Shown one piece after another: positions 4,457 to 55,002 of a stretch of DNA of 64,000 nucleotides; within the stretch, counting starts at the first letter, position 1; each line of letters opens with the position of its first letter. Both the position numbers and the translations under genes were made by a program. This DNA comes from Psammoneis japonica (lineage: Eukaryota). The DNA lies in the NCBI GenBank assembly GCA_008632985.1, contig QPGO01000061.1, positions 248,001 to 312,000 on the forward strand. Reading direction: 5' to 3'. The notes under the pieces were generated by a model. It saw only the letters and a program-made list of their open reading frames with translations, ran no database searches and was not told where the DNA came from.

Positions 4457-4573
4457 AAAAAAGTCAGCGTTGAGCGTTGATTTCACTCGCCAACGTCAAA
4501 GTTAGTTGTACAGTACAGTACTGTACAGTGCTACACAGCATGCCTCTTGTTCTGCGATCATTTTAACATCCGT

Positions 4574-6026
4574 ACAAGCTAAATAAATACGTCAGCGTTG
4601 AGCGTTGATTTCACTCGCCGTCGCCGAACGTCAAAGTTCCGTCGCCACTTTTTCAGTTCGCGTACTAGAGTATGTCCACTTTTCATGCGATTTTCCCGTC
4701 ACAAAAGCATTAGTTATGTGTTAAAAGGGACGGCATACAGCCTACGAACCTTTTTGCATTGAAATTTGCGATCCTTGAAGACTTTTCGTGAGCAGTGCCA
4801 AACTCTTGGAACAGTGCAGCAGCGCCGGGTGAACCGAATGGCACTGGCGATCGTCATTGTGGACTAGCGGCATTCACGCCAAGACCGCGAAAAAGAGGCT
4901 ATAGAACAATTCAGCATCAAAAAGTAAGTGCACAACATCACAGAGGCAATGAAGTTACTCCCAACCGCTGTCGCTGGGCTTGTGATGTCAGTTTTGTTGT
5001 CATTTTCGGCAACCGCAAAAAAGTTAAGAACAAATAAATATGACGGCTACAAAGAACTACTCGCAGCAGACGATGAGGCATATTGGTCAAGACTTTTGAG
5101 AAACATGGAAAGCATGAGCAGTCCTGTGTCGAACCCCCCCGGTATTCCCGAGGAAGCAGAATGCGTTGTAGACGAGGATTGCATTCCAGAGTTTCCTCCT
5201 ACACCTTCTCCTACACCTCCTCCTACGCCGGTCACTCCGGCACCGTCTCCGGATTGTAGCATAAATGAGGATTGCGCGAGATGTGAATCGAATCAAGATT
5301 GTGCTTATCTTAATAGTGGTAACGAAAACATCTGGTTTTGCGGAGAGTTTGTGGAGCCACTGGGTTATCGCGCATGTACTGCTGAGGCAGGTGGGGGGCC
5401 CACCCGTTACGAATGCACAGATGGCATGTGTGATGAAAACAAACCAATTGCAATTCGATGTTGCAAGATTGATTGCAGCGATACGTCACGACCGGGCAGA
5501 AGATGCAAGTAATCCTCGTGTTGCCAAAATGTGGAATGCCCGATTCGATGTGGGAAAGAATTTGGACCACGGTAATGTATTTTCCATCTTTGCGATCCCT
5601 TGCTAGCACGAACTAGAGATCCATCACTTCTTTTATTCAATGCAATATCTAACTTAAAGCAATTGAAAGAGTCGATTTGCTTGCTCTCGTAAATGCCCAT
5701 ACTTCTCGGATCACCCTCTATCTAGGCTTCAACAGTTCCCAGCATTGTAAAAGCGTCCTTCGCCTCTGGCAAACATGATTTATGCACAGCTTCATAGTTT
5801 TGAAGACAGGCACACAGTGGACGGCTCCTACCGAATACTGTAGAAATATGGATCTCCCATCATTTGGCTGTAATAATCCCATTTCAACTTTGCATCCAAA
5901 GTCGTTGCTCGCTCCGCAACCAAGGCACATCAGCTGCCACCCACAAACGATTCAATTCCGCTTGGCGGAGTTAACTCTTTGTGGAGGCCACATAGAAACT
6001 GATTGCTTTGTCGTTTTTCATGGAAC
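4574..6026 (+). repeat. Segmental duplication copy 1 (~1.45 kb)
   Basis: Near-identical to 8392-9835 from AAATAAATACGTCAGCGTTGAGCG to GTCGTTTTTCATGGAAC. Confidence 0.95.
4949..5512 (+). CDS. Secreted Cys/Pro-rich protein, copy 1 (premature stop relative to copy 2)
   Basis: Signal peptide MKLLPTAVAGLVMSVLLSFSATA, a WSRLLRNMESMSS motif, a PT-rich linker and a Cys-rich C-terminus. TAA at 5510 corresponds to TAC in copy 2; the homologous stop is at 5573-5575. Confidence 0.75.
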   Translation: MKLLPTAVAGLVMSVLLSFSATAKKLRTNKYDGYKELLAADDEAYWSRLLRNMESMSSPVSNPPGIPEEAECVVDEDCIPEFPPTPSPTPPPTPVTPAPSPDCSINEDCARCESNQDCAYLNSGNENIWFCGEFVEPLGYRACTAEAGGGPTRYECTDGMCDENKPIAIRCCKIDCSDTSRPGRRCK

Positions 6027-6029
6027 GCA

Positions 6030-7700
6030 GAATCGACTTGGGTCTTGGTCGGGACTCAATCACTGCTGCTCGAGTCCCACGAGCTCCCCGCTCTCGAACA
6101 TCCTCCTTGATTGTTTCGACCATGACGAACCCTTCATGCCAGGGTGTGAAGTCTCTGGCAACTTCTTGTGTGTCTCAATCTTGGGTGCTGACTCCCCAAA
6201 CAGAGTCACAAATGCCAGTCGACCCAAGCTCCAAAGGCAACCTCAACTTCAGTGGATGACATCACCGCCACTTCGAAGCACCCCACCAGAGTCTGTCAAG
6301 CACCTTCCAACTCTGCTTGGCTTGACTCAACAAATGCATTGTGGGTGCTTTTGTGGTGCTTTCACAGTCTGGCAACACCTTTTTGTTGGCACAGCAAAAA
6401 ACACAATCTTCCCAACAAAAGCACAGCATCTGAGTTGGTCAGCGAGCTTGCAGCCAGACTCTGCTTTCAACTGTCAAAGTCTCACCCAGTGCTCCAGGTG
6501 TCTCATGATTCTTGACTTTGGTCTTTCCAGGGTGCAGCTTTGGCTCTGCTGTCATCTTGTTGATGTGCTCTTCCATGGATCAAGTGAGCACAGCCTGCCC
6601 TCATTTGTCTCTTGAGCCTGCAATCAGCTCCAAGACATGCGCTGATTCCTCTGTTTTCTGGGATCTTGTCTTTCTTTGCTGCACAGTCCTTCAGCTGCCC
6701 AACCACATTGGGCCTCCCACAGATGAGTCCATCATCAACATGCACCAGCACTGGTGCTTTTAACCTGCCACTTTTGCTGCAACAACGCAGCACCCAAGGG
6801 TCAGCCTTGCTCTGATGCCACCCCAACTTTCACCCCAGTCCATGGCAACAAAGAAGTTGGCATGAGTGGATGCCTCACTTTGATGTTGTGCTGGCCATCT
6901 CAGCCAGCTTGGTCAATCATCAAGATGTGGCTCTCACTGTGGCATGTTTTGTGTGCATCTGGGCAAACTTGCAAAAACAATGTGTGAGCATGTGCATGAC
7001 TTCATGCTGTTGCAAGATTGCCTCCATTTCTGATGGCAGTCATTTTTGTCATTCATTGTCTGGTGCTTTTCACAAAGAGCTTTCAACAGTGTGACACACC
7101 AGTGCCTCGGGCCTCCCACAGATGAGCCGCCGCCAACACATGGTGCCAGCGGTGCTCTGCTGGTGATGGCACCTCCAACTTGCCATTTTCTTGTTGTGAT
7201 GACACAATGCACTGGTCCATGGGAACAAAGAAGTTGATGGCATGTGAGTGGGTGTGCTTCACTTCATTGTTTTGTGCTGGCTGTTGGCCAGCTTGATGCT
7301 CAAGCAAAACTTCAAGGTGGCATGTGGGGAGTTGGGCAGGAGAATGAGGTGATGGAGACAAATGGACAGCAGCAAAATTGCTGGGGTGCCAGCTGGGAAG
7401 CCACAGCAAAAGAACAAACTCTTCAGCATTGCAAAAAACATGTTGATCATGAGCGATGAGTGCGCGCAAAAGCAAGGCTTGTTCTGACCTCACATTTGCC
7501 CAGGGAGACTGACAACATTGTGCCACCTCCCTGGGCAGCATCTTGCTCCATGCATCCAAGTGCCAATGTGGACAACATGAAATCATCATGGAAAAGCCAT
7601 CCATCCAACAAGTGCAACACTGACATCACCTGTCATGCCGTCTCATGCAAAACACGTCAAAACAAAAAAGCAGTGTCAAGAGACCTCCAACAGGGTTGCT
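6030..7700 (-). mobile_element. Highly degenerate copia RT/RNase H relic
   Basis: ORF 6503-6826 reads GWHQSKADPW...VLVHVDDGLICG (copia RT YVDD motif with Y->H). The region is TpA- and CpG-depleted, with an internal diverged duplication (~6700-6920 vs ~7095-7300). Confidence 0.6.
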
Positions 7701-15334: not shown

Positions 15335-16040
15335 GGTCCTGGGCGTCTCGGGGCCTCTCAATTCTTCAATGGGTACGGTACAGCTAAGAAAGAAGAAAGT
15401 GGGCGGGCAGATGTTGAGGTGATGTGCGTTTTTGCACAGGCTGCGAGGCTACCGGAGGTATGTAAATAGTAGCGAAGTATTTTTGCTATTGAAAAATCTC
15501 GACACCAAAAATACTTATCGAAAATCGGCTTTCGTCAGTCACTAAAACACACCCAGTTGCAGCGACTGACGAAAGCCTTTTTTCGATATCTTCAGTTGTA
15601 AGAGCTGTAGAGCAAGAGCAAAGTATAGAAACAAGGTGTCCCATAAGTAATTTATATAGTATACAATCCTGGATGAGATTTCGGAACTCCGGATTAAATG
15701 TCAAATTTATGATACGATTAATGTTTGTATATAAATATAAAAATCAATTAGAAAAAGGCGAATATAACCGTTATTTTTCTTTAAATAAATACCAAATTTT
15801 CAACGACAAACATTCGCTTTCCGCTCACTCCGACCGATACAACATGCGTTTGACCTTGTTCAGCTCGTCGAGAGCTTTCCACAGATGTCTTGGGGTCTGT
15901 GAGGCGATCCTGAAAAAAAGTTCGCTTCTATTCACATACCTCCGGTATGTACGGCTGACGGTGGATACTTTTTACGTGAAAGCTGTACTGAATTCTACGT
16001 CTGTGAAGTATTTGATATTTCTGGTCAGCTCTGTCGAATT

Positions 16041-16181
16041 CACTCCCCAGCGTTCGTAATATATAAAATGCTAAGACACAATAAATTTTAGATACATAAA
16101 ATATTTATTACCGACGTTTCTAAGTAATATAAAATTATATGAATTTACGCAGACCTGCAATCCTCCGAACGCTGGGGAGTG
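16041..16181. repeat. 16-bp perfect inverted repeat around an AT-rich spacer (possible tiny MITE)
   Basis: CACTCCCCAGCGTTCG at 16041-16056 and its reverse complement at 16166-16181. No clear TSD. Confidence 0.55.
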
Positions 16182-16498
16182 TGTCGCAGGCACTGACGTC
16201 GCAAAATTCGTACTCTATCAAATTGTATTCTTACACGAATAAAAGGAATATGTACAATGTTGTACACATTCCAGATGATGAGTCGAACAAATCAATTTCC
16301 AAACCAAACTCACTCCCAACTGGGAGGTCTGTAAGTGGTACGGGAAGAAGACACCAAACTCAATTGGGAAATGGGAACTCTATCACTACTCTAGCTAAGA
16401 GGGTCCAATGGGGTCCTTCAGTCTATCACATGGAAATAGAAGCGCTACTGCAGAGTGCTTTGAGAGTTCTCTCCAACAAAACCGAGGCAGTATCAGCA

Positions 16499-17662: not shown

Positions 17663-17809
17663 GACAGCGCTTCTTTCTCATGGGCAACCTGTTGGCATGA
17701 TGTGCAACGTTTGCAATGGCTATTTTGCACCTTCATCCGGGTTTTCTTCAACCGTTTCCGAAAACGGTCGCTGCGCTCCTCCTCTGTCACCATTTTCACG
17801 CACCGAAAT

Positions 17810-20800
17810 CGCTTGCCTCACATCACCATTGTCACATTGTCAAGCCTTTGACTCTGGAATGCTGTTGACAATTTTCTGGTGGCTGCTGCTTTTGCAATGG
17901 TGTCTGACAAATGAATCGGTGTTCATTGGCACTCTTGACTGCACTTCTCTTTCATTTTGAGCGGGTCTGGTGCTGGTGCTGCCTCCGCCACAGCACAGTC
18001 TTTGTGGCCCCGCACTCCTGTGGCCTCTGCTCAGAATGACACCAAGGCAATCTCCAAACTCACATTGCCCTGCCTTTGTCAGGGGCAAAAGACCACTGAT
18101 CATGGAGCCCAGCCCTCTGTGCCCAGCCAGCCAAGAACCTGCAGGCGCAGGTGGTGCATTTGTGCCTGCGCTGATCACAGCATGCTCAAATCCTTTGATG
18201 GCAGCATGACATCGGCAGAGGCTGTGGGAAAAGAGATTATGATGTGTGACAGCAGCAGTGGGCACAGAGCTCAATTGCTGCTGTGTCATCTCTGCTGGGC
18301 ACACTTCAGAGTCTGTCTTGAGCTCTGTTGCCACGACCAGTCTGAGTGGCGAGTCTTGTGGGGCAAGCACGTGTCAACATGTGAAATCTTTTGTCAGATT
18401 GTTTTTTGCCTCAACTCCACCAACTTGAAAAGAGTCCAAGACAGCATGACAAAATGGCGTCAAATTCTTTGCAGAGTCCCACACACTGTTCAGCCTCGGC
18501 AACTTGTGCAACATGAGCACCAACCCTTTGCAGACACACAAGCAAGGACAGCCACACAATGAACCATGTGAGAACAGATTTGGAACAAGCTCAACAAGCT
18601 GATTCATTTTGCACATTGTTTGGTTTCATGCACTGTCCCATGACAAAGCATGCTGTGCACGCTGCTTCACACAGTCAAGCTGCTGCAGCTGTGCTGGGGG
18701 AGGGCACAAGAGAAAAAAGCATGTCATGAGTGCAAAACTTTCAACAGAGGCAGAGAGGATGCCGCCAAAAGCATTTGCAGAAAAGTTGGTTGAAAAAGCA
18801 TGGAGCAAATGGCTTCTGAAACAATGAGTTGTGACACATGAGTGACAACAAAGACCAGTTTGACACAAAAAAATGTGACAAATTCAGTGGCATCATCATC
18901 TCAGCCAACTTTTGCTTTCTGTTCCTGTCTCTTGTTGTGAGACAAAAAGACCATGACACAAATTACATGTGCACATTCATCAGATGCAACTGTGCCATCC
19001 ACAGTGGAAACAAGATGCTGGGTGGTTGTGGGTGTGTGTGTGCTGCGGTCATGAGAGCACCGCAAAAGTCAACAAAAACAACAGCACACTTCCTGACCTC
19101 TTGGCATGTCTAAACACAGCATGACAGTCAACAGCAAAAACAAATCCAACATGTTGTCCATCATGTTGAGCACTGTCTCTTGTCATTGTGTGACAATGCT
19201 CTCAACTTGATTGACCATGCAGCCATTGATGCACAAACAAGGACCAAGTGCCACAGTGTGGGAAGCGCTGTTTTTGTTCTTGTGCTCAGCATTGCATTGG
19301 ATGCAAGTCCAAGTTGCAACATCATGTGCTGCAAATTGTGCAGCTTTCCACGTGAAGTGATTTCCTCATGGGTTCTTCCCATTCCAAGTGAGGACAATGC
19401 CATGAAAGAGAGTGCAAATGTGCTGCACAGCATGTCAGGATCATTCAGTGTAAAACATTGAGCCAATGTGTCCAACAACAAGAAAAGGAGCCACAAAAGA
19501 GTGCACATGTGCAAAAGCAGTGGCAGTTTCTGCAAACAGACTGACAACATTCCATGGCAATCTCCATGATCTGTGTCATGTGACAGTCATCTGTCAAGGT
19601 GTCACCAGAGCAAATGTCGGTGCCATCAATGTTTTGATGCACCCCCCATGTTCAGGCACAGCTCTCTTGCCAACTTGCTTGTGCATTCTTGGAGTGCACT
19701 GCACACCATTGACTTGATGACCCTGGCCCTGACCCCGACCCCAAAAGTTGGGAGCTTCACAGAAACAATTTGACACAGCACAATGCTTGTTTCACCCGCC
19801 TCCAGCACCGTTGCCTCCAGAGATTTGGGTGCCTTTCTTCAGTGCCTCCAATCACCAACCTTCCAGTGGTCCACCATTCCATGATGAGAAAGAGAGCGGG
19901 ATTGTCTTCCAGATCACACACGCTGGCTGTGTTTGGGCGACAACCACTGGAGCAAGAGGGTTGCCATCTGTGTGGTGTGTGGCAGCATTGGGAGGGGTTG
20001 GGGACAATGAGGGAGACAATGTTCACATGGTGGACCAGTTGGTGTCACCTGTGGGAGGCAGCAGGGGAGCATGAGAAAAATGTGTGAGTTGGCAGTTGGC
20101 AGCACCCCACATCATTGTGGCTGTGCTTGGCACAAAATGATGAAAGAATCATCAGAGCACATGCTGCATTGAGGGCAGGAGGAACAGTGTCATGCATGCC
20201 AGTGGACCAGAATGCAGGGGCCACATTGGCACTCCTGACAGCATCTGAGGGAGGCAGTGGAGCATGGGGGGAAATGTGTGTGTTTGCAGTGTCAATTGTT
20301 GTTGATGTTGTTGGCACAAGACAACAACAGCAACAACAGCACCTGTTGTGCCAAGAGCATGAGCAACAGCATCAAGCATGCTGGTCAAAAGAAATGCAAG
20401 GATGGCTTGGCATTCATGACAGCATGTGTGAGAGGCAGTGGAGTGTGGAAATGACAGCATCAGCTTGCACCATCTCATTTTGCGTGCATCAGGTTGTTGA
20501 CAACAGAAGCAGCAACAACATTGCCTGTTGTGTCAGTGTTGTTTGCAACAGTGTCAGTGGGAACAGTGTCCTGGAAAGGCATTGGGGAAGAATCATGAGG
20601 CACCATCATTGTCAATCTGATGTGATGCGTGCCTTTTTTGTGGTTGCGAGAAAGGCCAAAAAGTGTTTTCATCTGGGGTCGGCTCTGGGCCACTTGACAT
20701 TTTGGGGGAGAGTGTGGTTCAGAATTTTTCCTGTCATTGTTGGCATTTGTGTGCAAGTGATGATGCAAAATTCAGTGATGTGATGACATGTAAAATCTTC

Positions 20801-21648
20801 ATGATGTGAGCGTTGCATCACCGCGACATAAAAAAAAACACATTCTCCACTTGCAAAGGGATGGCTGATGAGTTTGTCAGTTTGTTGCCCTGGGATGTTT
20901 GCAGTGCCCCGCTGATTGTGAACGCCTGCCCATCCCCCACTGACACTTCTGTCTGATGCCCAATTGCTCCCATCTGTGCATGCTCTGCTGCGGTGGCAGT
21001 GGCACATGCAGCAAAGCCCCCATTCTTCAAGTTGGCACTTTTCTTGTTGCTTTGGCACAATTGGGAATGCCTGCAACATTGCCATGGCAGAATCAACCTC
21101 ACCCCAAATCTGCGCACAAAAGATCCCAAAGAGCATGTGTGTTGTTTGCCATGTTGGGAAGATCTCTGTTTTGCTTCTTGTTGTCTGTTGCTTGTCATGT
21201 CTTTTCAGCTGTCCTCTTTCAATTGCTTCAAGAGAAAATGCTGACAGTGTCGGCAGATCAGCACGCAAGTTGAATCCAGTGCTTCCGTTCCTCAAATTCA
21301 ATGAAATGGAAACCCAGTTGCACAAGGACGGATTCAACGATGCCCGCCAGAAAGCTGTGGAGAATCCAGAAAACCGGCATGATCACAAGCGCTTTCAAAT
21401 TTTCAAGGAACTGGCCAGTTGCAGCAAGTTGGCATGTGTGGGAGGACCGTGTTGCACTGGCAAAAGCAAAATTGCTTGCGCAATCACCATTTTTCAGCAA
21501 GAGGACTGTGTCACATGCTTGATTGGTGGGAACAACCAGCGGGAATTTGAGTTGGATCTTCTGACAAAAAGACAAAATGCCAGATCCTGAGCGGCTCACA
21601 TTTCATTGCAAATGCTTGCATGGTGGAAATGGCGCCAAGCTTCTTTTC
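17810..21648. repeat. Degenerate TpA/CpG-depleted repeat-derived block
   Basis: Almost no TA or CG. A short segment at ~18570 (CAGATTTGGAACAAG.TCAACAAGC) recurs at ~34358. Confidence 0.6.
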
Positions 21649-21924
21649 TGATAGAAATTGAAGGCAAATGGCAAGAATTCAAACAATGACTCCTCACTGC
21701 TGTCTAAACAGCAGATGAGTCTCTGCTCAGAGACCATCACAGGAGCCGAAAGACGTGTGAGTCGGTGTGATCGGGCTACTGTCATCATTCTTGTGAGCCT
21801 TGTGGCTCGAAAGCAAACTACATCGCACGCGAACGCGCGGAACTAAAGCACACAAAACTGTGCACGGTGAGCTAAATGGCGTGCAACATTTCGCGCGCAC
21901 CCAAATCCTGTTCAAATCCTGTCA
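21649..21924 (-). repeat. 3' LTR
   Basis: TGATAGAAAT...CCTGTCA, colinear without gaps with 28451-28726. Confidence 0.95.
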
Positions 21925-21929
21925 CTCCC

Positions 21930-24900
21930 CAGTTTGCTTGAGGAGCCACAGAAACAGATTCGACTTTGGATGGAATGAAGTTCCAGAACATGAGGGGGCG
22001 GAGAAGGTCCCAGATTTGGGAGTGACCCCAATGCTTGCTGAGAATGTCAGCAGGGTTGCGGGAGCCTTCGATGAAGTGGAGCTCAAGGCAACCAGAGGCA
22101 ATTGCCTCATGCACACGGTGGAATGACAGTGCGGTGTGTCACTTGTGCAACTTGGAGTGCGGGATGGTGGCACTGTCTACAACTGACTTGTTGTCACCGA
22201 ACATGCAACTGACATTGCGGATCGGGACGCCAAGGCAGCGCAGGGTGATGCGCAGGTCGACAATCTGCTCGACACAAGTCCTTGCGGCAACAAATTCAGA
22301 CCCGCAGGTCGCAGTCTCCATGGTGGCTTGCTTCTTAGAGAACCAATCAGCCGGGAATTTGTTGAGGAAGTGGAGCATTCCCATGACAGAGCGTCCGGTG
22401 AGCATGCAATGGTGCAAGTTTGCATCGATGTAGTGGGTGGCAGTGACGAACTTGCCAAGGGGCGGTGGAGCGTCCTTCGGGACCATCTCTTCTGCTTCAC
22501 CGCACACGGAATGCATCCATTCATGGGCCGGAGCAGGGAGATCTGAGTGGTCGGGATCTTCCGTGCGAACGCGAAGAGCGCCATGTCGCATCTTGGAGAG
22601 GTGCCCACAGACGCGTTTGGCACGATCCAAGTGGCCTTGACGGGGTGCAGCTCGGAAGCTAGAGAGTGACATGACGGCCGTGGCAATGTCAATTCGACCA
22701 AGGGACACTGCCCATTGGAGTGAACCAACAAGAAACTGGAACTTGTGAATGCCATCGGGCCCCAGCAGTTCGGAAGTGTCCAGTTCGGGGTGGTCACCCT
22801 TCTCCAGAGGTGACAGGGCGTTGGTGGCAGGTTTCTCCCCAAACAGTCGGGCGCAGCTGTCGACCATGCACTCGATGCACTTGCGCGGAGACAGGCACAA
22901 GGTGCCGTCGGGATCCCGGGATAAGTCACAACCCAGATGGAACTCAATGGGTCCCGCACCCTTGAGCTTGAACTTGTGCTTTTCCGTGAGAGTGTCGACA
23001 AAAGATTGAGGGTCCTTCATGGCAATGGCGAGGTCATCCACATAAACGGCAATGTGTTCACAGTGGTCGCCGTTCCTGCGCATCCAAATGTCGGGTTCGG
23101 CGCGGCAGGGGAAGAAGCCTTCAGCTCGCAGGCAGTCGGCGAAGTGCTCGTGCCAGCGGAGACCGGAGCTGCGCAGTCCATGCATTTCCTTGTGGATGAC
23201 AAGGATGTGTCCTTCAAGTTTGCCAAATTCGGGTCCGGCTGCAATGTAGAGCTTCTCCTTGGTGGTGGCTTCAAGGTGGGCATTGCCAATGTTGGTGGCC
23301 CATGTCTCCAACTCGTTGAGTTTGGCCAGGAAAATCATCAGCCGAAGGCCATGGAGGGAGACCACTCCGGAGTAGACACTGTCGATGGGTGCGTCCGTGA
23401 GGTGCCCATCGGCTGCGAGTCGTGCCTTGTGGCGACCGTCATGTTTCACATCGCACACCAGGTGCACTCGGATCTTCTTGTGTCCCGCAGGAGGAGTGGA
23501 AGACTCGAAGGGCCCGCAGTCATGGAAGACTTCGCATTCCTCGAGTTGGTCCATCTCGAGATTAGTTGCGTCTCCCCATTTGCGGTTGCCGTTGTGTTCG
23601 TCTGGTGACATGGCGTGTTTGCAGTTCCGGGGAATTTCGTGTCCGCACTTGCAGCGAGGTGCAGTGCAGAAGGAGCGAAGCTTGGCTTGGTTGGCCATGC
23701 GAAATGGCTTCTTCTGGCGCCTCGCGATGGTGCGTCGGAACCGCTTCCAGCCATCAGTGTCGAGAAGTCCATTCTCTCGTGCATGGATGGCGCAGGTGAC
23801 GGGGTCGTCCTTGGCGATGATGGCAAGAGGCTCGGACGTGATCTCCCCACTTTCCCATTCAAGCACAATGTTGTAGCTTGAGCCTTTCCAGGTTGGGTCA
23901 TGAGGCTTCAGAGGTCCTTCGTGTGACACGATGCATCGAAATTTCCAAACAGCAGTGTCTTCGTCTTCTTGCTCAATGTGATTCATGATGTCGTTGCAGG
24001 CAAGGACTTCCTTGCATTCGTCATTGTTGACAGAGCAGACGAACCCAGTGAGCTCGGGATTGCCGTTCACTTTCCATTCGTGGTCTTCGATGGCCTTGAC
24101 GATGCGAGCTCTGTGGCGTTGTCCGTCCTCTTGTGGCTGCATGAGGAAGGTGCGTCCGATGATGTCTTGCGGATCGAAAACTGGCATCTTGGGTGTCCTG
24201 ATCTCCCCATCAGGAGAATCGACGGGGTTGTCGTCATGGCGAGATTTGATGATGGGTTCAGGTGGCTCCCCATCAGGAGGATCAAGATGCAGGTTTTGAA
24301 TGGCAGGATCGGTGGCAGCGGATCGTACGTTGGACCGGCAGAGGATCTTCTGTGTCTCGTCAGAGAGAATCTTGAAGGTCATCTGGTGGCCGACGTGCTC
24401 AGCAATGCCAACAAAGCGTCCACACAACTCACGGGATTCGGGCGGCCAATCGGAGTCATCGAGGTGGAAGTGCACGGGTTCCCACCAGTGAAAGCGAAGC
24501 AATGGGCTGATGTCCGGGGTGGAGCCAGTGAGAGTCTCGAGGGGCGTGCACCAGTGGAGACGCGGGGACGCTGTGTGGTTGAGTGTGAAGCACACGCACA
24601 TGAGCGCCAGCAGCCATGTGTGGGCAGGCGAACCGAAACAATCCATGACAGTGTTCGCCATGTGCTTCACGGTCTGGTGTCGACGCTCGGCAAAGTTTTG
24701 GTGTTGCTGGTGAGGCTCACTTTGCCAGCTGGAGATGAAGAGGGCTCGCAGGATCCCGAGCACCTTGTTGCTGATCTCAACTTGAGCACGGTCGCCAATG
24801 AGTTTGGATGGGGCACCACGCTCCCGGATCTGATCCTCGAGTGTGTTGACAAACTCTTTGTCTGTCTTGGTGCTGTAGACGTCAGTGACGGCAGACTCGG

Positions 24901-26719
24901 TGCCAACAAACAGTTGGGCGCTGGTGCAACCAGAGTCGACGGCCGGGGTGTCGGCATGAACGGTGTCAGTGGCGACAGGCTCATTGCGGCGGTGCACATT
25001 AAGGGCGGGGTTGGGTGATTTGCAGGCCTTCCTAAGGTGTGTGCCGGCGGGCATGCGGACGCACTGCGTGGTGCAGTCAAAAGTGCGACGGACCGCATCG
25101 GCAGGGAGGAAGCCAAAGCAAGGCCAAAGAGACTCGAAGGGGGGGTCCTTGGGCTGCACAGTGCGCTCCGGGGGCGGAACGTCGTCGTCCTTGGGGTCAA
25201 TCGCGTGCAGATGACACTCGCAGAACACGTCGTTGTTCGGAATGAGGTGATCATCGAGGGCGGACGCGTGATCGGCAGACAAGGAAGCGGACATGATGGT
25301 CTCGTTGACAACGACACGATGACGGCAGTTGCCGCATTCGTCAAATGGGTTGGCAGTGGGATCATCCTGCAGGTCAGAGATCGCGTCGCACCACTGGTCG
25401 TCATCAGTGACAGAGTGATCGAGGATGGAAGGATCCCATGTGTCATCACCGGTGAGGATGACATGGGGCAGGGTGTCCCATTCGGCATCAGTGCAAGGTC
25501 GCATGGCAACACAAGGCAGGCCGCCCTTGATGTCAATGGGGATGACACAGCCATCAGGAGTGGCAACACGTTGCAAGCCATTGGGCACCTTGACAGAGCG
25601 ATCGTTGACATCCTGTTTGCACCATTCGAGCTGGCCGCAGGAATGAATGGTCTTGCCCTTGCCCGTGTGTGTGCACTGATGGAGGATGGCGATGACAGGA
25701 CCACGCTGGGTCTCAATGACGGCACCAGCGGTGACAACAGGGATGTCCACCAATTGATGGTCGTCAATGCCCTGAACGTCGACTTGGCGAGAGGTGCGTG
25801 CAATGACGTGAACGTCGTCGCCAGCAATGCCGCCGTTGGCCCCACGATCGACTAGAGCACCAGTGCGTGTGGAGCGATGAGCAGAGGCAGAGCAAATGAC
25901 ATTGTGGTTGTCAACGCGGCGGTGAGTGCGGCCGTCAAGTTCCATGTCATTGGAAGGAGCTGGCGGAGCAGAGGGAGCGGCGGATGGCACCGGTCGACCA
26001 GCGTTGGGGGCTTGGTTAGGAGACAACAGACGTTGCAGATCACCGGGTGGCAGTGGCTTGCGCTTGGTGAGGTGCGCCAGGATGGGATCATCCAAAGTGG
26101 CACCCACATTTGGAGCGGGGTCACCAGAGTCAGCAGGAGTCGTGTTGGACAAGTTGACATCACCGTCGCTCCCAAGGCATTGGTCGTGAAGGTTGGCCGC
26201 AATGGACTCATGGCAGTTGCTGGCTCGCGGGTTGTGGGGAGGCGGACGAGAATGCTCAAGGATGATCACCTTGGAGGAATGGGGCAACGAATCCCAAATC
26301 TGTTGGTGGTCGGGAGGGAGACGTTTCCATTGGTCACCGGTGAGGCTGGGACCACGGGTGCAGGCAGCATTGGCCTGAAGGACGTCAATGTCACTGTCAA
26401 TGTCGTAGAACACATCGTCGGATGGTTCCTCGGAGCAGACGTCATGTGCGTGTGTGGCACGTTGGGGAGCTCGAGGTGTCGTCTTGGGTTGAAATGCACT
26501 GTCGCACTGAGCCGCCGCGGAGAGGAGCAAGCCACAGCATTGGTCGCATGTGAGGCTCTTGCCACTCTGCGTACGATGCTGATCAGCTTGGTTCTTGACA
26601 GCACGGAGTTCCTCGACAGGGTGTGCGGCATTCTCGAGCATGACGCGCTTCTGTCCTTCAGAGAAGTGGTCACTGGCCGGGATGAGTGCCTCGCACTTGC
26701 GCAACTCAGACCTTTCCAA
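21930..26719 (-). pseudogene. gag C-terminus plus pol (protease, integrase, RT, RNase H)
   Basis: 1526-aa ORF with LVDRGANGG, VATDT, SEPHQQHQNFAERR, DVKHDGRHKARL, YVDD, DANL and ETAT(C)GSEF. A nonsense TGA at 22139-22141 (KLHK*HTALSFH, expected R) is followed by NPADILSKHW. Confidence 0.93.
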
Positions 26720-27543
26720 GCACCATCACCAAGACGTGCGGTGGTGAGGTGCGTGAGCAAGGTGGAGGACTCGACAGATGCGTGGGTGGAGGCGAGCGCA
26801 TGCTCAGACAAGGCGCGGCAGACGGTCTGGGCGTCAGAAGACCCCACATTTTCGCGAATGAGAGCCTTGCCCTTGTCGGTGAGAAGAATGCGTTCGAAGA
26901 CGGCGAACATGCACTTTTGCTGTGCAGCAAAGAGCAGTTTGTCTTCGGGGCTGGTCGGTTTGTACGACGAGTCTAGAATGCACTCGACGTCTTGGGCATG
27001 GGCTTGTGCCACAAGTGAGGTGTGCCAAGTGTGCCACTGCTTGTCGGATTTGAGAGCCGTGAAAGTGGTGGGGTCACGCTTGATGCCTCGCTTGAAGTCT
27101 CGCACTGGGTCGCGTGCCTTGGTCGGGTTGGTGACATGCGGAGGTGCGAGGGGTGAGCTGCCGATGGACACAGAAGACATGTGGTCGGGGCTGAGGCGGC
27201 AGGCAAGGAACTCGTCATGCGTGAACAACGAGGAGTCATTGGCAATGTCAAGACCTTTGTGTGCTTTGACAATGCACAGACTAACTAGAGCTGCTAACAT
27301 GTTCTTATAACCACGGGGCAAAGGGATCACATTGGTGCCGTTGTCACACTCAAGCGAGTCGATTTGGGACGGCATGAACGTGAACAGTTCTTGATGCGAG
27401 TCCGTGCCGTCTTGGGCCAAAGCCGAACGAAGAGGGCTCCCAGCACCTTGGGCAAGCACGGTTCCAACAACGTGCTCGAAACCATCGGTTTGTGGCTGAC
27501 GAGTGAGAACCATGGCAGACAAAAGTGGTGTCAGGACAAGCAA
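26700..27543 (-). pseudogene. gag N-terminal part
   Basis: FKRGIKRDP, W..WH, Q.CMFAVF..IL.TDKGK and DAQ motifs typical of diatom copia gag. The frame changes near 26712. Confidence 0.8.
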
Positions 27544-28450: not shown

Positions 28451-28726
28451 TGATAGAAATTGAAGGCAAATGGCAAGAATTCAAACAATGACTCCTCACT
28501 GCTGTCTAAATGGCAGATGAGTCTCCACTCAGAGACCGTTGCAGGAGCCGAAAGATGTGCAAGTCAGTGTGGTTGGGCTGCTGTTGTCATTCTTGTGAGC
28601 CTTGTGGCTCGAAAGCAAACTGCATCGCGCACGAACGCGCGGAACCAAAGCACACAAAACTGTGCACGGTAAACTAAACAGCGCGCGACATTTCGCGTGC
28701 ACCCAAATCCTGTTCAAATCCTGTCA
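28451..28726 (-). repeat. 5' LTR
   Basis: Partner of 21649-21924, followed by TSD TTTTC. Confidence 0.95.
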
Positions 28727-31427
28727 TTTTCTTTGCGCTTGATGAACTCATGCAGAGACACAATCATGCCCAAATTGACTTGCCAAAAATGGACATTGAG
28801 GGGTTCGAATTTGGCACTTTTTGACACTTTCTACATGGGTGCGCCAGCAACGGCGCACACTCCCAATGCAGATCCTTGTCAAAATTCACCACCGGACTCA
28901 ATTTGCAGAATTGTTTCCTTCCAGATTAGAGGACTTCAAACTCGAGGCAGATCTCATCTACACTGCTCAGGCTCTGTTTGATCTCGGCCATGTTGTGCCC
29001 AAATGCAACGACAATTGGATGTGCCTTTGTTGTTCAGAACTGATGTTGGTGAGGCTCCATTGCCAAACTGACAATGGAAAGTTGATGAAGAGAATCAAAG
29101 ATGGAGAAGTTAAATTCATTGGGATGAATCCTTGAGGTGTGGTGCAGGCGGCAGCACATGCACTGCATCTGACTCGAAAAGGTGTTGTTGCTGTGCAGAA
29201 GGTAAAATCACACAAAGCATTGTTGTGCATTCATTTGTTGCATTTGGAGTCAGGCTGAGCAAGCTTCGGCAAACAGTTCTGAGTCAGGCTTGAAAGAGAT
29301 CTTTTGGATCTTTGCGAGCTGTCTCTCACATGATGCAGGTGAGCACATTGCACTGGCTTCCCCAAGAATGTTGTGTGCCAAGGCTTTTCATTCTTGGTGG
29401 CTGGCAGTGTGCCAGCAGAGGCAAGCCGCCAATTTAAATCATGCACAGTGTGACAAATTGCTTGCTGCAGTCATGCATTGACCACACAAGGCAGTGTGCA
29501 CACTTGTGCTGCACATCTGTGAACCCTGGTTGGTTTGCTCTAAAGTCCAAAGCCTTTGCCTGTGTCTGGCGGGAAATGCTTGAGATGTCAGCAGATTGCA
29601 AGGATCATGTTGTGTCAATTTTTGTGGGGAACAATTTTTCCAGCTGTTTGAGCTCCTCAAGGTGGGTGAACTGAGTGCATTTTAGATTTTTCAAGAAAAT
29701 GGTTTTGTGCCAGCTCTGGACAGTCCTCATCACATGGGTTGTTTTGTCTTAGATGGAAATTTCTTCATTCATGTTGTGTGGGCGGTTTCATCAGGCAGAC
29801 CTTGCCACATGCCGGGTTGGTGGCCAGGAACACATGTCAGAGCATTGTCTGAGTTGCACGGAGTCAATGGTGGTGTTTGGTTGGGTGGCACAGTCTGGCC
29901 CACCAAGAGGCATGGTGCAGCCACCATTGATCTGTGACAAACAACAGGATGTGCAGGCACATGCACAGCCGCCGCAGCACCCCACACAGAGATGCCTTGT
30001 TCAGCCCCAATCAGATCAGTTGCCGGCTGGCCACCCAGCCATTTCTGGTCCCATCACATGGGATGCAGTGACTTTGAATCATCACAAATGCCAACTTCAA
30101 TTGTGAGGTGCACTTTTTTTATTTTAATTTTTTCTGAACTCTGCAACGTGACTCAAACAACAAAGAAGTCACCACTTGACATTTTGTTTGCCAAAAAACT
30201 TGTCGCACAAAATGCCGTCAGATGCAAAGGTCACAACTGCTGCAAAGCCAAAGGTTGAGAATGTTTGCATTTGCAATTGAGGTGATCTTCTTTGCTTGTT
30301 TGAGGTGCCAATGGTTTTTCTGAAGTCCAAGTGCCACTTCCAGTTGCTCGCATGCCTGCAAAAGCAGGGCACCAACAAACGATTAAAGTTCCACACACTT
30401 CCACTGCCAATTTCCATGAGAGACACATGAGGGCAAGCATGGCCCAACTGTCCAGTCTCTCTCTCTCTCTCTTTTGGCACCTGACAGATTGGACAAAGCA
30501 GCCAATGGTGGGGGCTTGTCAGCACCGAAACAACAAATGCAGACGTGTTCCAGTCCCAGGTGACACACAAAACGACAATCGATTTTGAATATAAATTATG
30601 TATCTATTAGTGTATGGAGTATTTTCATATAAAATACTTAAGCGGATTGGCTTTTATAGGCGTCTAGAGTATGAATAATTATGAAGAATTAAATAGTTTT
30701 TTGTGGGGTGTCAAATTCCTCATGGGATATGTATCATAAACTTCCTCAGTAGACTCAATGCTGATTGTACGTGTGTAGTCTTTATACATAAATTTCTTTG
30801 TAAGTAGAAAATATACTAAAAAGCATTGTAGAAAGATTTATTTAGTTAACATCCAAATAACGGCAATAATTTCGCCGAAAATCATCCGTTGTGTTACGAT
30901 TCGTTTGTCGCAATGAAAAACATTTGTGGCACAATAACAATGATTTTGCAACACTCACACGAGTCTTGTTAGTGTTGCAAAACATTAGAATTTGAATAAA
31001 TCTATACTTTTGGTGGTGAAAAACCGTTCGTAAGTCAGAGACCGCGCAAAAATCGCGCAAATGTCGTTTTTGTGCACGATTTGGGTCACGTGCGGCTGGG
31101 ACACACGGCATTTTGTCGCATTTGGCGACATTTTCTTAAATGAATTGATGATTTGTCGCGAAAAGACGCGAATTGCGACAAAATGTCCGGGTTGGCGATA
31201 AACGGGACAGAAACATTGTTTGGTTAAGTTACAAAATGATTGATGTCATTAACAACCAACCTGCACTTTGGCGATGTCGTTTCAATGAGTGGGGTGATTA
31301 ACAGAATTTGGCGATCGATGTCATCGACGAAATTTCATCTGACAAAATTTGTCGGATGCGACAAAATTTGTCATGTGAGACAAATTTTGTCGGATTTGTC
31401 GGACGTCCGACAAAATTTGTCGGCATC

Positions 31428-48643: not shown

Positions 48644-51455
48644 CTAAGATATCGGAGCGCCCACGAGACTGGCACAAGAGCATGGACCCGCGGATGATAG
48701 AATAACCTTGTCTTCCCACATGGCCTCACCACTCTCACCGGTTTTGAGTTGTTTCGACACGGCATCCCACGTTTTGCGCTTTTTCACTTGTTTAGAAGAA
48801 AAAGTCTCTCCAGTCAAGCCCTCAATATAGACGCGCTCTCCAACGACGGCACCATCTGGCGGGGTCACCAAAAACACTTTTTTGTCCGTCTTAGCGGCAA
48901 GAACCATGCCGTTGCTGCTGAAGCCAAGAATCTTGTAGGCTTCCAAATTACACACCACCAAGACAAGTTTGTCTTGCATCTCATCCAACTCGTAGTGACC
49001 TCGCAAACCAGAAACAATCTGGCGAGGACCCGTTTCTTCCCCAACATCAATTTCCTCACAGTAGAGCTTGTCGGCTTCGGGATGTTCCCATACCTTGTTA
49101 ATCTTACCCACGCGAATATCCATTTTGGTAAATTCTGCTTGATCGCTTTGACCAGCCTTGCTAGCGGCAATGGCCTTGGCTTTCTTTTGCTTTTTCTTTT
49201 GCTGTGCTTCCGCAAGAGACAAGGCTTTCTTCTTGGCGGCTTCTTCAGCATCGAGACGCTCTTCTTCCGAAAGGAGCTTGGTATACAGCACATCACCGAC
49301 CTGAACCTTGACTCCCACCACCAAATTACGTTGTCCCTGCAACTCTGCCAAGCTCACAGGAGCCGTGCCTAATTTACGGAATATCTCGCTTGCGCCCGTT
49401 GGCACAAAGGGCAAGAGGAAATGGGTGAGTGCATATAAATTGCTTCGAGTGTGGCTCGCACCACGATACGACGCGCCTCGGCATGTTCATCGCCCTTTTT
49501 CAACCACGGAGCTTCCTTGGTCAGATAGCCATTGACATCCCGAAAGCTCTGAATGGCAATCGTGGCACCCGCCTCTAGTTCAAAATTGTCCATCTTGTGA
49601 CTATACGACTCAATCACGGCACCCAAGTCGACGGGCAATTCTTGCGGAGCAGGCACGTCGGGAACAAGGCCGTCGCAACACTTGTTGCAAAGGTTGGTTG
49701 CCTGGTGAACCAAGTTGCCAAGCACATCACAAAGATCTGAATTGTGCATGTCATGCAGTGAATCCTCATCAAAGGATAATTCTCTGCCATGCGGAGCTTC
49801 CTTGCACAATCACCTGATTGAAAATGGTGTGAGTGTGACAAAATGGCAATGCCAAGCAATCACACACCAACAGCACTTGCCTCCTCACCAGGACATTTAT
49901 CCAGCATGTCGCGAGGATCCACAATGTTGCCCAAGCTCATGGACATTTTCTTTCCCTTGCTGTCATTGATGACCCATGTGCGAACACCATCTTGGGCAGT
50001 GGGACACCCGCAGACATTGACAGATGCGGCCAAATGATGGCATGGAACCAAAGGATGTCCTTTCCAACAATGTGCACATTGGCGGGCCAAAACCTCTTCA
50101 AGTCGACTCCCTCCTCCAATCCAAAGTGATCGACACCAGTCAGACAGTTGGACAGCACATCCACCCACACATGCATGACGTGATTGTCATCAAAGCCCTC
50201 TGGAACAGGAGTGCCCCATTCAAAACTTGTCCATGAAACACTCAAATCAAGAAGCTCATCTTGAGCGAGATGGAACAAGATGTGGTTTCGATGGGTCTGA
50301 GGATGAACAAAGTCCGGACTGGCTTCAATGCACTTGACCAAACGACCATGACAGGCAGACATTTTGAAAAAGCAACTCTCTTCTTCCACCTGTTTGAGCG
50401 GTGCTCCAGATGTTTTGTCCTTGCAGTCCGAGAGCTGTGCTTCCGAATCCGTGACAAAGGTTTCTTCACAGACATTGCACCAACCCTTGCAGTGATGAAG
50501 GCAAATGTCACCCTTGTCCGCAACATGCTTCCACAATTCCTTGGTGGTGTGTTTGTGATGATCTGACGTGGTGCAGATGCAATCATCATTGGAAATCAAA
50601 GTGCATTGATTCAAACACTGAAAGCCAGCCACGTGCTGAAAAAAGAAATTGAAGAACACTCAAGTCAAAATCACAGCGCTCACATCATGCACCTGGGACG
50701 CGTTCCAGCCCTAGGTGGGACTCCGTGTGACATTGGGCCCGTAGAATTCTACGTGCGAGCTCCGTAGTACGAGAATTTAATTAATGGATATATTTATCTT
50801 CAACATCAAATAAACGGCAAAGTTTGTGGTACAATTATGCATCTTACCACTCGACGTTTTTGCAATTGCACCTGCCCTACGCGATCTTAAGACAGTATAG
50901 AATCGCGCTGTAACAAAATGTCAAAGTTTTTGGACGGATCGCTCAATAAGTGTACCGTAAAATGACACAAAATATCAAAAAATCACGTAGAATTCTACGT
51001 GCGCGACATACGACGAGATTCAAAAAACTATCGATGTCACAGTTCAGTAGTACGAGGTCCCACCTAGACCTGGAACACGTCCTGGGACAATCACAACAGA
51101 GCACAAAAGCACACCTGACTGCAGAGATCAACAGGTTCCTTTCCTTCTCCGGCAGCCGTGTTGGCAATCTTTTGTCCGTGTTCATCGGAACCCATGACAA
51201 AACACGTGCCGTTGGTGCCCTTGAGACGTGCAAAGTGGGCCAAGGCATCAGTTGTGGCGGCTTGCATGCATGACCCATGTGATCAGGACCATTGGCACAG
51301 TTGATGGCCGCAGCAATGCAGAAGGCATCTTCACTGCCACCAGGCTGTTTGCCACCTGCCTTGGCACTGCAACCACAATCAATCATCTCCTCATCCTTGA
51401 CGGTGAAACAATCGTAAGATTCTGATTTCTCCTCTGCTGCTGTGTTGTTGCTCAT
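48644..51455 (-). pseudogene. MARS: Methionyl-tRNA synthetase pseudogene with C-terminal tRNA-binding (EMAPII/Trbp111-like) domain
   Basis: HMGH (HIGH) motif, GSDEHGQKIA, GKDILWFH, KMSMSLGN (KMSKS), DIRVG..HPEADKLY..RQIVSGL. Frameshifts and Tyr->Cys/His substitutions are present, and a MITE sits inside intron ~50636-51114. Confidence 0.9.
50697..51081. mobile_element. MITE with GACGYGTTCCAG..CTAGGTGGGA TIRs, 4-bp TSD CTGG
   Basis: TIRs at both ends and CTGG at 50693-50696 and 51082-51085. Related to 56741-57136 in opposite orientation. Confidence 0.9.
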
Positions 51456-53500: not shown

Positions 53501-55002
53501 CCTCCTGATCTGTTTTTGGCCTCATGACTTTGACCTTTTCATCTGCACATCAAGAAAGCCACACCATCTCAAGACCAAGAAGCAGCTCCTGTCACCAAGA
53601 AAACTGGCAAACAAGAGGACTTTTTCAATGCTGCAAACTTTTGGATGCTGAGCACAGATTTGCCTGCCTGGCTGCCACAAAGCTGAAGTCAAGACCAACT
53701 CAAAGGGGGGCACTCTGCTTGGACATCTCCCCAATGCTGACATGTGCCTTTGGGTTCACCAGGCACTGAGTTGAGTGTCTAGATTGCTGACCACAACTGA
53801 GTGTTTGTTGCTCACTTTTGTCTTGGTCGTGCGCTGTCATTTGGCCACCCCATTTCTCTTGAGTTCTCTTGTCACGTGTCAAGCACATTGCTTTGCATGA
53901 ATTTGAGTTGAGAGTTGAAAGGAGAGTCTTTGGGAAAACAAGACATTGTGCCTTGTGCTCAAATGCAATTGCAAGAACAACACTCATCAAGGTTCAGATT
54001 GATCGCTCGCATTGTTGTCAACATTTGACCATTTCCTCCTGAGGGGCTGCAAAAGACTGCATCTTGCATTTGATTCTGACATTTTGCACATTCAAAGCAC
54101 GCAGTCATTGTTCAAAGACGCGCTTCTTAAAAGATCAATTTTGCACTGAAGCACGTCTAAATTAAATGCAAAACAACAAAGATGCTCAGTTTGGGGCAGC
54201 AGACACATCAGGTGCAGATGCTGGGTCATCTTGCTGGCATGAAACATCAGTTAGGGCCCAATTGATCCTGTGAAACAGGGCAAAGTCATCACAAAAATTG
54301 GTCCACTGCTGCACAGCCAGAGCTCCACACATTTTGGTCCATCTGTCGCCAGTTTGTGCCAACATGTTGAGGGAAATGAACAAGGAGGCCAGAGTGTCCA
54401 TGTCCCAATTGACAAATCATCTGAGACAAAAAAACAATGTCTGCTCCTCATGCAGAGCAACAAGAGACAACAACAAAGCACATGGTGGCTCGCAAACACA
54501 GTTGTTGAAGAGGCAGACCAACTGAGTCTTGTGTGATTTTTTAATTTTTCATTTCCAATGAATGCAAAAACACATTCGTTGGGAGGAAACTGTCAATGGG
54601 ATTCTGACCAAGATTTGTGTTCAGTGGTTGATTCGATTTGACAGGATTTGAGTGGGATTTGCTCTGTGCGTGATTTTCTTGAGTGCTGTTTTGGTGTGTG
54701 TCACCCACAGGTTTGTGTGCTTTTAGCTCCTTGCACTCTTGCAAGAAGCAGCTTTGCTTTCCAGCCACCCAGATTGCAAGAATGATGACAAAGGCCCAAA
54801 TTCATGATGCATGTCCATCGGCTCCTGCAACAGTCTCTCTGCACCGAGGCTCATCTGCCATTTGGACAGCAGCAAGGAGCGTCATTTTCTTCCACCCCAT
54901 TTTGTCTTCTTTGTTTTCTGTCATGACTCTTGTTTTTGAAACATTTGTGTCCTCTCCTTGCTTTTCACTGTGATGTTGTCTCACAAAAAGTTGTGCCTTT
55001 AA

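Follow-up and report, generated by a model that had tools for sequence, protein, structure and literature searches.

A copia retrotransposon of the diatom Psammoneis japonica whose long terminal repeats differ only by transitions: a probable record of block-wise hypermutation at TpA and CpG

A Ty1/copia retrotransposon lies on the minus strand at 21649-28726 of a 64,000-nucleotide stretch of the genome of the diatom Psammoneis japonica (contig QPGO01000061.1, positions 248,001 to 312,000; hereafter the window). Its two long terminal repeats (LTRs) differ from each other by transitions only. In all likelihood, this pair records a hypermutation at the DNA level, after integration, of discrete transposon-rich blocks, in which TpA and CpG are turned into CpA and TpG by transitions. 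The changes have a direction and are specific to these dinucleotides; they are confined to blocks and strike DNA outside retroelements as well, and no transversions or indels accompany them in the LTRs. What the LTR pair shows is best taken as one outward sign of a hypermutation that affects TpA and CpG block by block in this diatom. The process is similar in its working to repeat-induced point mutation (RIP) of fungi, in that integrated transposons are inactivated by point mutations, but it is the opposite of RIP in the direction taken at TpA.

The Element and Its Long Terminal Repeats

The LTRs, the target-site duplication (TSD) and a reverse-transcriptase (RT) domain of the RVT_2 family together identify the element as a single insertion. 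Each LTR is 276 bp long and runs from TGATAG to CTGTCA, with a 5-bp TSD on each side. When the two were aligned with MAFFT and compared by script, they filled 276 columns with 0 gaps and 27 differences, which comprised 27 transitions and 0 transversions. A preliminary description of the window had arrived by hand at about 27 differences, all transitions without indels, including six swaps between CA and TG doublets, four sites with TA in one LTR and several with CG; the script returned the same total, the same six and four, and nine CG sites. Steps from pyrimidine to purine (YR steps) hold 25 of the 27 differences but only 52% of the LTR positions (p = 7.5e-6). The ratio of transitions to transversions (Ts:Tv) of 27:0 compares with 44:52 in an unaffected duplicate within the window (Fisher p = 4.9e-8). 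Chance is thus excluded as the source of the transition pattern.

The mutations arose after insertion, as the preliminary description had held, since the TSD copies match and both LTRs contain derived states. Polarisation by other copies of the family places derived states at columns 179, 234 and 237 in LTR 21649-21924 and at columns 106, 116, 122, 124, 172 and 181 in LTR 28451-28726, and both LTRs carry derived states of both kinds, loss of TA and decay of CpG.

It is very improbable that the differences were made before or during integration, by RNA editing of the ADAR type or by errors of reverse transcription, or were imported by gene conversion. ADAR prefers an A that follows a U, and the thousands of family copies that carry the same kind of transitions would be plentiful donors for ectopic gene conversion. 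However, a single template serves for the copying of both LTRs, and editing or RT errors therefore leave them identical, whereas they differ here at 27 places. Nor is one strand favored, as T>C and A>G on the sense strand are nearly equal in number, with conserved tyrosines changed to His 7 times and to Cys 10 times (columns at consensus of at least 0.5). The same signature is found in the single-copy flanks (depth 68) and in half of a host gene for methionyl-tRNA synthetase (MetRS). The matching TSD excludes a crossover between elements, and gene conversion moves mutations but makes none. Because the LTRs differ and half of the MetRS gene has been hit, the process acts on DNA and not on RNA. 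The action on both strands and the dismissal of RNA editing and RT error, both asserted in the preliminary description, are thereby borne out.

Ordinary ageing of an old element under a strong neutral transition bias hardly comes into consideration. A divergence of 10% between LTRs is common in old elements, but neutral DNA in the window shows no such bias. The tandem duplicate 4566-6026 / 8385-9835 has 44 transitions and 52 transversions, and three other unaffected repeat pairs have 34:26, 0:4 and 6:11, which gives 84:93 for the four pairs summed. With Ts:Tv near 0.9 in unaffected repeats, the transition-only pattern is not a general bias. In addition, the LTRs contain 0 transversions and 0 indels, and 321 of 342 conserved columns of the polyprotein other than Tyr (94%) are intact. 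These figures agree with the earlier suggestion that the element is young and that a date taken from its LTRs would be overstated. The rate was high enough to erase most TAY sites (Y, pyrimidine; R, purine) before a single transversion arose in 552 LTR bases.

Direction of Change

The direction of the changes was read from the protein, for which 986 residues of the polyprotein were aligned to 84 outgroup copia homologues with at least 38% identity. At columns with a consensus of at least 0.7, Tyr is kept at only 3 of 20 (9 have become Cys, 6 His and 2 Phe), compared with the 321 of 342 for other residues. At a consensus of at least 0.9, the numbers are 0 of 6 for Tyr and 112 of 117 for the rest. 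Residues that would reveal the opposite change are preserved: His is kept at 10 of 10 columns, Gln at 10 of 10, Trp at 9 of 9 and Cys, at a threshold of 0.5, at 2 of 3, so that CA and TG are not being converted to TA or CG. Residue shares are shifted to match: Tyr stands at 4.12% in the homologues and at 0.61% in the window protein, His at 3.26 and 5.78%, and Cys at 1.29 and 3.75%, respectively. The whole frame of 1528 residues contains only 7 Tyr. For the RT alone, comparison with an independent set of 120 RT homologues shows Tyr kept at 2 of 12 columns.

Outgroups at the DNA level agree. A metagenome scan yielded 3 loci related to the element, at 66-68% identity, with ratios of observed to expected (o/e) TA of 0.68-0.92 and normal Tyr content, which makes them usable only as outgroups. 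Two metagenomic loci, L001 and L003 (TA o/e 0.75 and 0.92), served for the comparison of nucleotides. Sites with TA in the outgroup show CA or TG in the window in 28 of 40 cases (L001) and in 30 of 50 (L003), and TA is kept at 3 and 3; there are 0 cases, in either comparison, of CA or TG in the outgroup with TA in the window. The RT stretch has 14 and 13 Tyr in these two relatives and, counted from the translation, 3 in the window. TA thus gives way to CA or TG, on both strands. The Tyr evidence, to which the preliminary description had looked for the direction, does supply it.

These data bear directly on a classical process that would be driven by methylation or resemble RIP and make only C>T changes, in which case the ancestors of the swaps would be CG and those of the TA sites CA or TG. 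This has some points in its favor: seven of the nine CG-polymorphic LTR sites carry CG in other copies, the CpG o/e is 0.21 in the old blocks described below, and passages of one paper (PMC9998398) place DNMT4, a relative of the fungal RIP enzyme RID, in diatoms. However, C>T changes alone predict enrichment of TpA, which is instead the most depleted dinucleotide (o/e 0.04-0.13). TAY codons have been lost to His and Cys while His, Gln, Cys and Trp columns were kept as given above, and not one outgroup CA or TG has become TA. As the sole process, C>T is refuted and must be rated very unlikely, but it survives as the CpG component.

Sequence Context

Loss of TA depends on the neighboring bases. 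RTAY (ATAT, ATAC/GTAT and GTAC) has 0 survivors in the old blocks against 348 in normal DNA; TAs with one half-site, a purine before or a pyrimidine after, have 19 against 551; and YTAR (TTAA, CTAA/TTAG and CTAG) has 33 against 175, of which TTAA alone makes up 20 against 55. The difference in survival between RTAY and YTAR is significant (Fisher p = 1.5e-15). The codons of the polyprotein follow the same pattern. Each of the 5 Tyr codons that survive follows a pyrimidine, whereas 0 of 9 survive after a purine, where 5 became His and 4 became Cys. The 8 mutated Tyr codons that follow a pyrimidine became Cys in 6 cases and His in 2. This fits a half-site rule, in which a T>C change at 5'-R-T-A and an A>G change at 5'-T-A-Y of the opposite strand are one event, and each strand is hit independently of the other. 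The His and Cys outcomes are not clustered along the protein (11 runs, P = 0.88) and give no sign of long tracts of processive change on a single strand.

GATC was tried as a target, as three transitions fell in this word, and was rejected: 102 occurrences are observed in the old blocks against 102.1 expected.

Other Copies of the Family and the Decay of CpG

Further copies were sampled in contigs from a public sequencing run, X1, that were placed on the stretch at 80% likeness. The element attracts 14,095 contig pieces with a summed depth of about 1e5, compared with 68 for the flanks, so the family has very many copies. Stretch 21000-21567 is at single-copy depth (68.5). Contigs span both junctions between LTR and flank (21000-21676 and 28706-29500) and differ from the hypermutated flanks by 2 letters in 677 and by 1 in 795.

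An artefact of sequencing or assembly, such as miscalled bases at modified positions, is next to impossible to reconcile with these data. In diatom genomes it is the transposons that are methylated, and 40% of the sampled 31-mers of 21000-29500 are missing from run X1 (60% are present), both of which might raise the suspicion. Against it, the LTRs show opposite states, CA in one and TG in the other, in identical context, which no systematic error can produce; the contigs match the flanks almost letter for letter, and thousands of contigs vary in the same manner.

Variable places among the family copies comprise 131 A>G, 129 C>T, 122 G>A and 109 T>C, with 71 for all transversions together. Four even transition classes are the expected product of CA/TG swaps between copies. 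There are 572 variable places, and the single sites in the ORF given here come from 40 of them. Among these, the four swaps listed within the open reading frame (ORF; 22236/7, 22524/5, 22548/9 and 22977/8) all fall on codon positions 1-2 of codons for which the majority of outgroups have Tyr. The window reads TGC at 22878, against TAC in 90% of the family depth and Tyr in the outgroups (0.93), and TTG at 22148, against TTA in 88% of the family. CpG has been lost in the window alone at 22870, 23145, 23595 and 22544, where more than 98% of the family keep it. One other copy has ATATATACGG at the place where the window, from 28349 onward, has GTGCACATGG.

Within the LTRs, other copies have C at 21882 (92%) and G at 21885 (100%), and they carry CG at columns 106, 116, 124, 179, 181, 234 and 237, that is, at 7 of the 9 CG-polymorphic sites. 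Loose ends of other copies, aligned by eye, have TA at column 172 and CG at 106, 116, 124, 179 and 181. The TA-polymorphic sites are thus losses of TA, and at least 7 of the 27 differences are decay of CpG by C>T chemistry, which contributes about a third of the total. This qualifies the preliminary description: the CpG share is not loss of TA, so that two processes are superposed. In this copy the loss of TA is far more complete than that of CpG. TAY codons have been lost at 17 of 22 positions in the element, compared with 4 of 38 conserved Arg codons of the CGN type that became His or Cys.

The six LTR swaps come mostly from TA, probably, because TA is more saturated than CG and because all four listed swaps in the ORF lie on Tyr codons. 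The preliminary description had made the Tyr codons the guide to these doublets; they prove to be so for the swaps listed in the ORF.

Several observations weigh against the interpretation given here. No unmutated LTR was found that would show the ancestral state at the six LTR swaps, and 0 of the 6 lie in RTAY context, so that each would need one disfavored product if it came from TA. If sites were independent, the numbers of them left intact, hit once and hit twice would lead one to expect about 2 swaps instead of 6; either some sites are much hotter than the average or the two LTRs were not independent. Two LTR differences lie outside YR steps, and columns 221 and 223 (GTGAGC against GTAAAC) do not fit the half-site rule. 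The depth-weighted majority of the family can itself be derived at saturated sites, and TA has gone from every copy at 22977/8. The window may have been assembled from the sample of run X1, in which case the run is not independent support for its sequence. Finally, comparison of the RT region with the metagenomic outgroups shows no net loss of CpG, with 5 and 12 changes from CG to TG or CA and 18 and 12 in reverse, so that the direction of the CpG change rests on the family copies and the old blocks.

Hypermutated Blocks and Host DNA

The window as a whole has o/e ratios of 0.33 for TpA, 0.70 for CpG and 1.5 for CpA and TpG, but these averages conceal three kinds of DNA, which are called old blocks, young blocks and genic DNA in Table 1. 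A deficit of CpG with an excess of TpG and CpA, as expected from decay of methylated CpG, is present in the repeat blocks and not in genic DNA. Windows of 500 bp have TA o/e 0.00-0.06 and CG o/e 0.03-0.40 in 18001-21500, to the left of the element, and 0.08-0.10 and 0.20-0.24, respectively, in 29001-30500, to its right. The copia element therefore lies within an older block and was inserted into DNA that was already mutated. Block borders are sharp to single TAs: 5993-8054 contains two TAs, and 12983-13891 and 49898-50712 contain none. Non-coding DNA beside genes is normal (for example, TA o/e 0.84-0.88 in 15501-16500), which shows that the loss of TA is not a genome-wide bias. Self-comparison of the window in purine/pyrimidine space gave few further repeat pairs; within the window, the old blocks are thus not related among themselves. 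No transposon domain was returned by Pfam for 49 ORFs, many of which lie in hypermutated blocks.

A host gene is also affected. In the catalytic part of MetRS, Cys or His stands at 7 of 9 Tyr positions, together with changes of Arg to Cys and Arg to Trp (counted in the alignment), while the tRNA-binding C-terminal part (48647-49486) has normal composition. TA is scarce in the anticodon-binding part (49372-49809), with 6 occurrences in 49487-49898. A TA-poor block also holds the N-terminal part (about 51066-51600), which seems to be frame-shifted. This bacterial-type MetRS gene (49899-51600, minus strand) is probably a pseudogene or a damaged duplicate.

A repeat of about 390 bp occurs in at least three places: 50696-51081, within the MetRS gene, 56741-57137 and 38683-38872. 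In two of these copies TA is abundant and the differences are exclusively or mostly transversions (0:4 and 6:11), and the third, in an old block, is mutated by transitions. The repeat looks like a small mobile element that is younger than the hypermutation around it, and the copy inside the MetRS gene appears to be a later, unmutated insertion. From the presence of this unmutated repeat in a gene that was hit, it seems that the process works in episodes or requires a certain length or chromatin state.

The pairs 4566-6032 / 8385-9841 and 50696-50769 / 57064-57137 are duplicated yet unaffected, and the affected flanks are now single-copy, a statement that applies to the present and not to past copy number. 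The tandem duplicate stems from a gene segment for a Pro/Thr-rich repeat; its copies are 99-100% identical in parts and of normal composition, and a hypermutated block of 2 kb (5994-8053) lies between them.

Proposed Mechanism

Two processes would account for these patterns. In the faster one, TpA would become CpA or TpG by attack on either strand independently, with RTAY erased first and YTAR, above all TTAA, last. In the slower one, CpG would become TpG or CpA, the change that deamination of methylated cytosine leaves behind. The four TA sites of the LTR pair would then be single hits of the TpA process and the nine CG sites single hits of the CpG process, while each of the six CA/TG swaps would have been struck once per LTR, on opposite strands, in most cases probably starting from TA.

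For TpA, a spectrum of transitions this clean speaks for the conversion of bases and against error-prone repair. The chemistry that we tentatively prefer, while rating it at clearly less than even odds, is conversion of adenine to hypoxanthine in T-A-Y by a deaminase that would be recruited to silenced transposon chromatin and act beside the decay of 5-methylcytosine (5mC). The effect would be permanent inactivation of the transposon; all 6 near-invariant Tyr of the polyprotein have been lost here. The fuller picture, a defence that mirrors RIP, with a DNA adenine deaminase directed at T-A-Y on both strands of transposons, erasing TpA and Tyr codons along with decay of 5mC, is somewhat more doubtful.

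About as doubtful is a different chemistry, in which thymine at R-T-A would be oxidized to 5-hydroxymethyluracil (5hmU) or 5-formyluracil by an oxygenase of the TET/JBP type and would then mispair with G, or a symmetric N6-methyladenine (6mA) mark at TpA would be deaminated. A TET/JBP-type oxygenase would also oxidize 5mC at CpG, and a symmetric mark or an enzyme for 5-methylpyrimidines would explain why two palindromic YR steps are lost and CA/TG is the sink. 5hmU at TpA is known from dinoflagellates. On the other side, oxidized thymines also give rise to transversions and repair scars, and there are none in the LTRs; the parts of the literature that were searched contained no report of 5hmU or of TpA-type 6mA in diatoms.

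Adenine deamination, to return to the preferred chemistry, may find a lead in the tRNA adenosine deaminases TadA and ADAT2/3 and the adenine base editors derived from them, as their context matches the putative T-A-Y half-site. The target of the tRNA enzymes is A34 in U-A-C, and early base editors preferred Y-A-C. Trypanosome ADAT2/3 can deaminate C in DNA. We know of no natural adenine deaminase that acts on chromosomal DNA.

Other families, and perhaps other species, may be affected too, as suggested by the composition of their proteins. Five of 269 public copia homologues (P0332, P0212, P0381, P0159 and P0288) are poor in Tyr (0-1.9%) and rich in His plus Cys (6.3-12.1%). With 50-59% identity, these proteins come from other families, and His or Cys has replaced Tyr in them at positions other than those in the element, including the YVDD motif, which reads, for example, HVDD or CVDD.

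Comparison with Known Systems

RIP, which is known from Neurospora and other fungi, shares many features with the present case. It acts on DNA after integration, makes transitions on both strands and inactivates transposons; it produces blocks with sharp borders, can damage adjacent or duplicated host genes and inflates ages that are based on sequence. It differs in chemistry: RIP changes C to T (CpA to TpA in Neurospora) with a gain of TpA and a drop in GC content, whereas TpA is destroyed here and A:T becomes G:C. Only the CpG component runs C>T. RIP is also fungal, whereas this genome is that of a diatom, in which a tandem duplicate of 1.5 kb, 99-100% identical over some stretches, went untouched and single-copy DNA was hit, so that dependence on homology is not evident.

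Decay of methylated CpG, in vertebrates and in basidiomycete transposons, is similar in its change of CG to TG or CA, the resulting excess of CA and TG and its occurrence in silenced repeats. It does not account for the loss of TpA, the faster and more complete of the two losses in this case. The CpG part of the process would be ordinary decay of this kind. Transposon methylation in diatoms is described in passages of PMC9998398, which also state that DNMT4 is present in many diatoms with unknown function.

Editing by APOBEC3 or ADAR has in common with the present case a deaminase-type, context-dependent hypermutation of retroelements by transitions only. However, these enzymes act on cDNA or RNA before integration and on one strand, which leaves the LTRs identical and other DNA spared, the opposite of what is found here. 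The differences in this element are not common to both LTRs, do not favor one strand and are not restricted to retroelements. Very-short-patch repair in E. coli, with the associated scarcity of CTAG, resembles the process in converting T:A to C:G, there to counter deamination of 5mC, and in depleting words that contain TA. It is a weak, genome-wide equilibrium at the site of one methylase and not a block-wise erasure of TpA.

To our knowledge, defences against transposons by point mutation are known from fungi and all work by deamination of cytosine, and no system that removes TpA from integrated DNA by A:T to G:C changes is known in any organism. A search of full-text literature, which did not cover supplements or subscription journals, gave no description of a TpA-directed hypermutation. 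A search for terms in the main text of two papers on diatom transposons (PMC2806351; bioRxiv 10.1101/2025.10.24.684338) gave no mention of hypermutation, deamination or dinucleotide bias.

If the interpretation is correct, a chemistry other than that of the fungal systems is needed, either a natural DNA adenine deaminase or a mutagenic mark on thymine or adenine, which would be of direct interest for base editing. Dating of diatom transposons by LTR divergence would be inflated by an order of magnitude or more. Repeat finders that depend on base identity would miss old copies. This is illustrated by one copy, the third LTR-like fragment (54699-54880), which rises from 71-74% base identity to 87% in purine/pyrimidine space; it is too mutated itself to polarise the swap sites. 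Host genes beside or inside targeted blocks can be destroyed, as the MetRS gene was here. ORFs of diatom transposons would be no evidence of function, since the stop codons TAA and TAG vanish. Within 21000-29500 there are 50 ORFs of at least 80 residues in 8.5 kb, with long ORFs in all six frames. A frame can be open without being functional because TA, and hence TAA and TAG, is nearly absent, and ORF length is no evidence of coding in hypermutated blocks.

Features of the Window

The features are collected in Table 1. The closest relatives of the element's RT are RVT_2 proteins with 58-69% identity, and full-length polyproteins reach at most 60% over 986 residues. Two homologue searches, at near-full and shorter lengths, gave no protein copies of the same family above 75% identity. 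Apart from RVT_2, a Pfam scan of the mutated element protein gave no domain, integrase included, at E 0.01.

Table 1. Features of the copia element, the LTR differences and the surrounding DNA. LTR columns are those of the pairwise alignment.
Feature	Position or extent	Strand	Basis or composition
TSD TTTTC, left copy	21644..21648	.	Identical pentamer at 28727-28731
3' LTR of minus-strand element, 276 bp, TG...CA ends	21649..21924	-	Pairwise alignment; repeat family D4
Purine-rich tract adjoining LTR, polypurine-tract-like; sets element orientation	21925..21945	-	Putative assignment from sequence
Open frame, 1528 residues, gag-pol remnant	22142..26725	-	ORF list and translation
RT domain, Pfam RVT_2, copia type	22904..23491	-	PF07727, E = 4.6e-22, residues 1079-1274 of P0001
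5' LTR of minus-strand element, 276 bp	28451..28726	-	Pairwise alignment
TSD TTTTC, right copy	28727..28731	.	Flank comparison
Diverged third LTR-like fragment	54699..54880	-	Self-comparison of window
CA/TG doublet swaps, n = 6 (12 positions)	LTR columns 61-62, 76-77, 90-91, 110-111, 135-136, 229-230		
CG versus TG or CA, n = 9	LTR columns 88, 106, 116, 124, 179, 181, 234, 237, 248		
TA versus TG or CA, n = 4	LTR columns 130, 172, 196, 221		
Differences outside YR steps, n = 2	LTR columns 122, 223		
Old blocks	18,922 bp		TA o/e 0.04, CG 0.21, CA/TG 1.86
Young blocks (element and 1-4000)	11,078 bp		TA o/e 0.13, CG 0.79, CA/TG 1.45
Genic and near-genic DNA	25,500 bp		TA o/e 0.59, CG 0.98, CA/TG 1.20
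Older hypermutated block, left of insertion	17722..21648	.	One TA (18238) in 17722-18600
Older hypermutated block, right of insertion	28732..30589	.	Three TAs in 29800-30589
Unaffected tandem duplicate, neutral control, TA o/e about 0.6	4566..6032, partner 8385-9841	+	Self-comparison
cNMP-binding and kinase domains of cGMP-dependent protein kinase	10230-12840	-	
Catalytic-domain part of host MetRS, no TA in 813 bp	49899..50711	-	Alignment to solved MetRS

The genes of the window encode a cGMP-dependent kinase, a class 3 lipase, an aldehyde dehydrogenase, MetRS and the rRNA dimethylase Dim1. The nearest named relatives of Dim1 are from the diatoms Fragilariopsis, Thalassiosira, Nitzschia, Pseudo-nitzschia and Cyclotella (67-78% identity). 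The spliced-leader motif of dinoflagellates has 0 matches in the window at up to 3 mismatches. On these two grounds a dinoflagellate origin, which the 5hmU at TpA in that group had brought to mind, was rejected.

Positions 1-4000 form a second block of the young class, with TA o/e 0.07-0.27, CG o/e 0.56-0.89 and 52-53% GC. It contains three long minus-strand ORFs with 0-0.85% Tyr, in which Pfam gave no transposon domain and only a sub-threshold EF-hand. This block may be another hypermutated element, cut by the edge of the window. The 907 bp of 12984-13890, inside or beside the cGMP-dependent protein kinase gene, are without any TA, and their ORFs have no Pfam domain; they may be an intronic transposon relic.

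At 31378-31662, CGACA/CGTCA pentamers form an array similar to a microsatellite, in which CpG is very frequent (o/e 1.4-1.8) and TA low, and which lies between the arms of an inverted repeat (31088-31147 / 32338-32397). An old block also contains tandem repeats at 40577-41134 (three copies of a 186-bp unit) and 40138-40430 (a pair of 123 bp), the copies of which differ mainly by transitions (34:7, 15:7 and 16:8).

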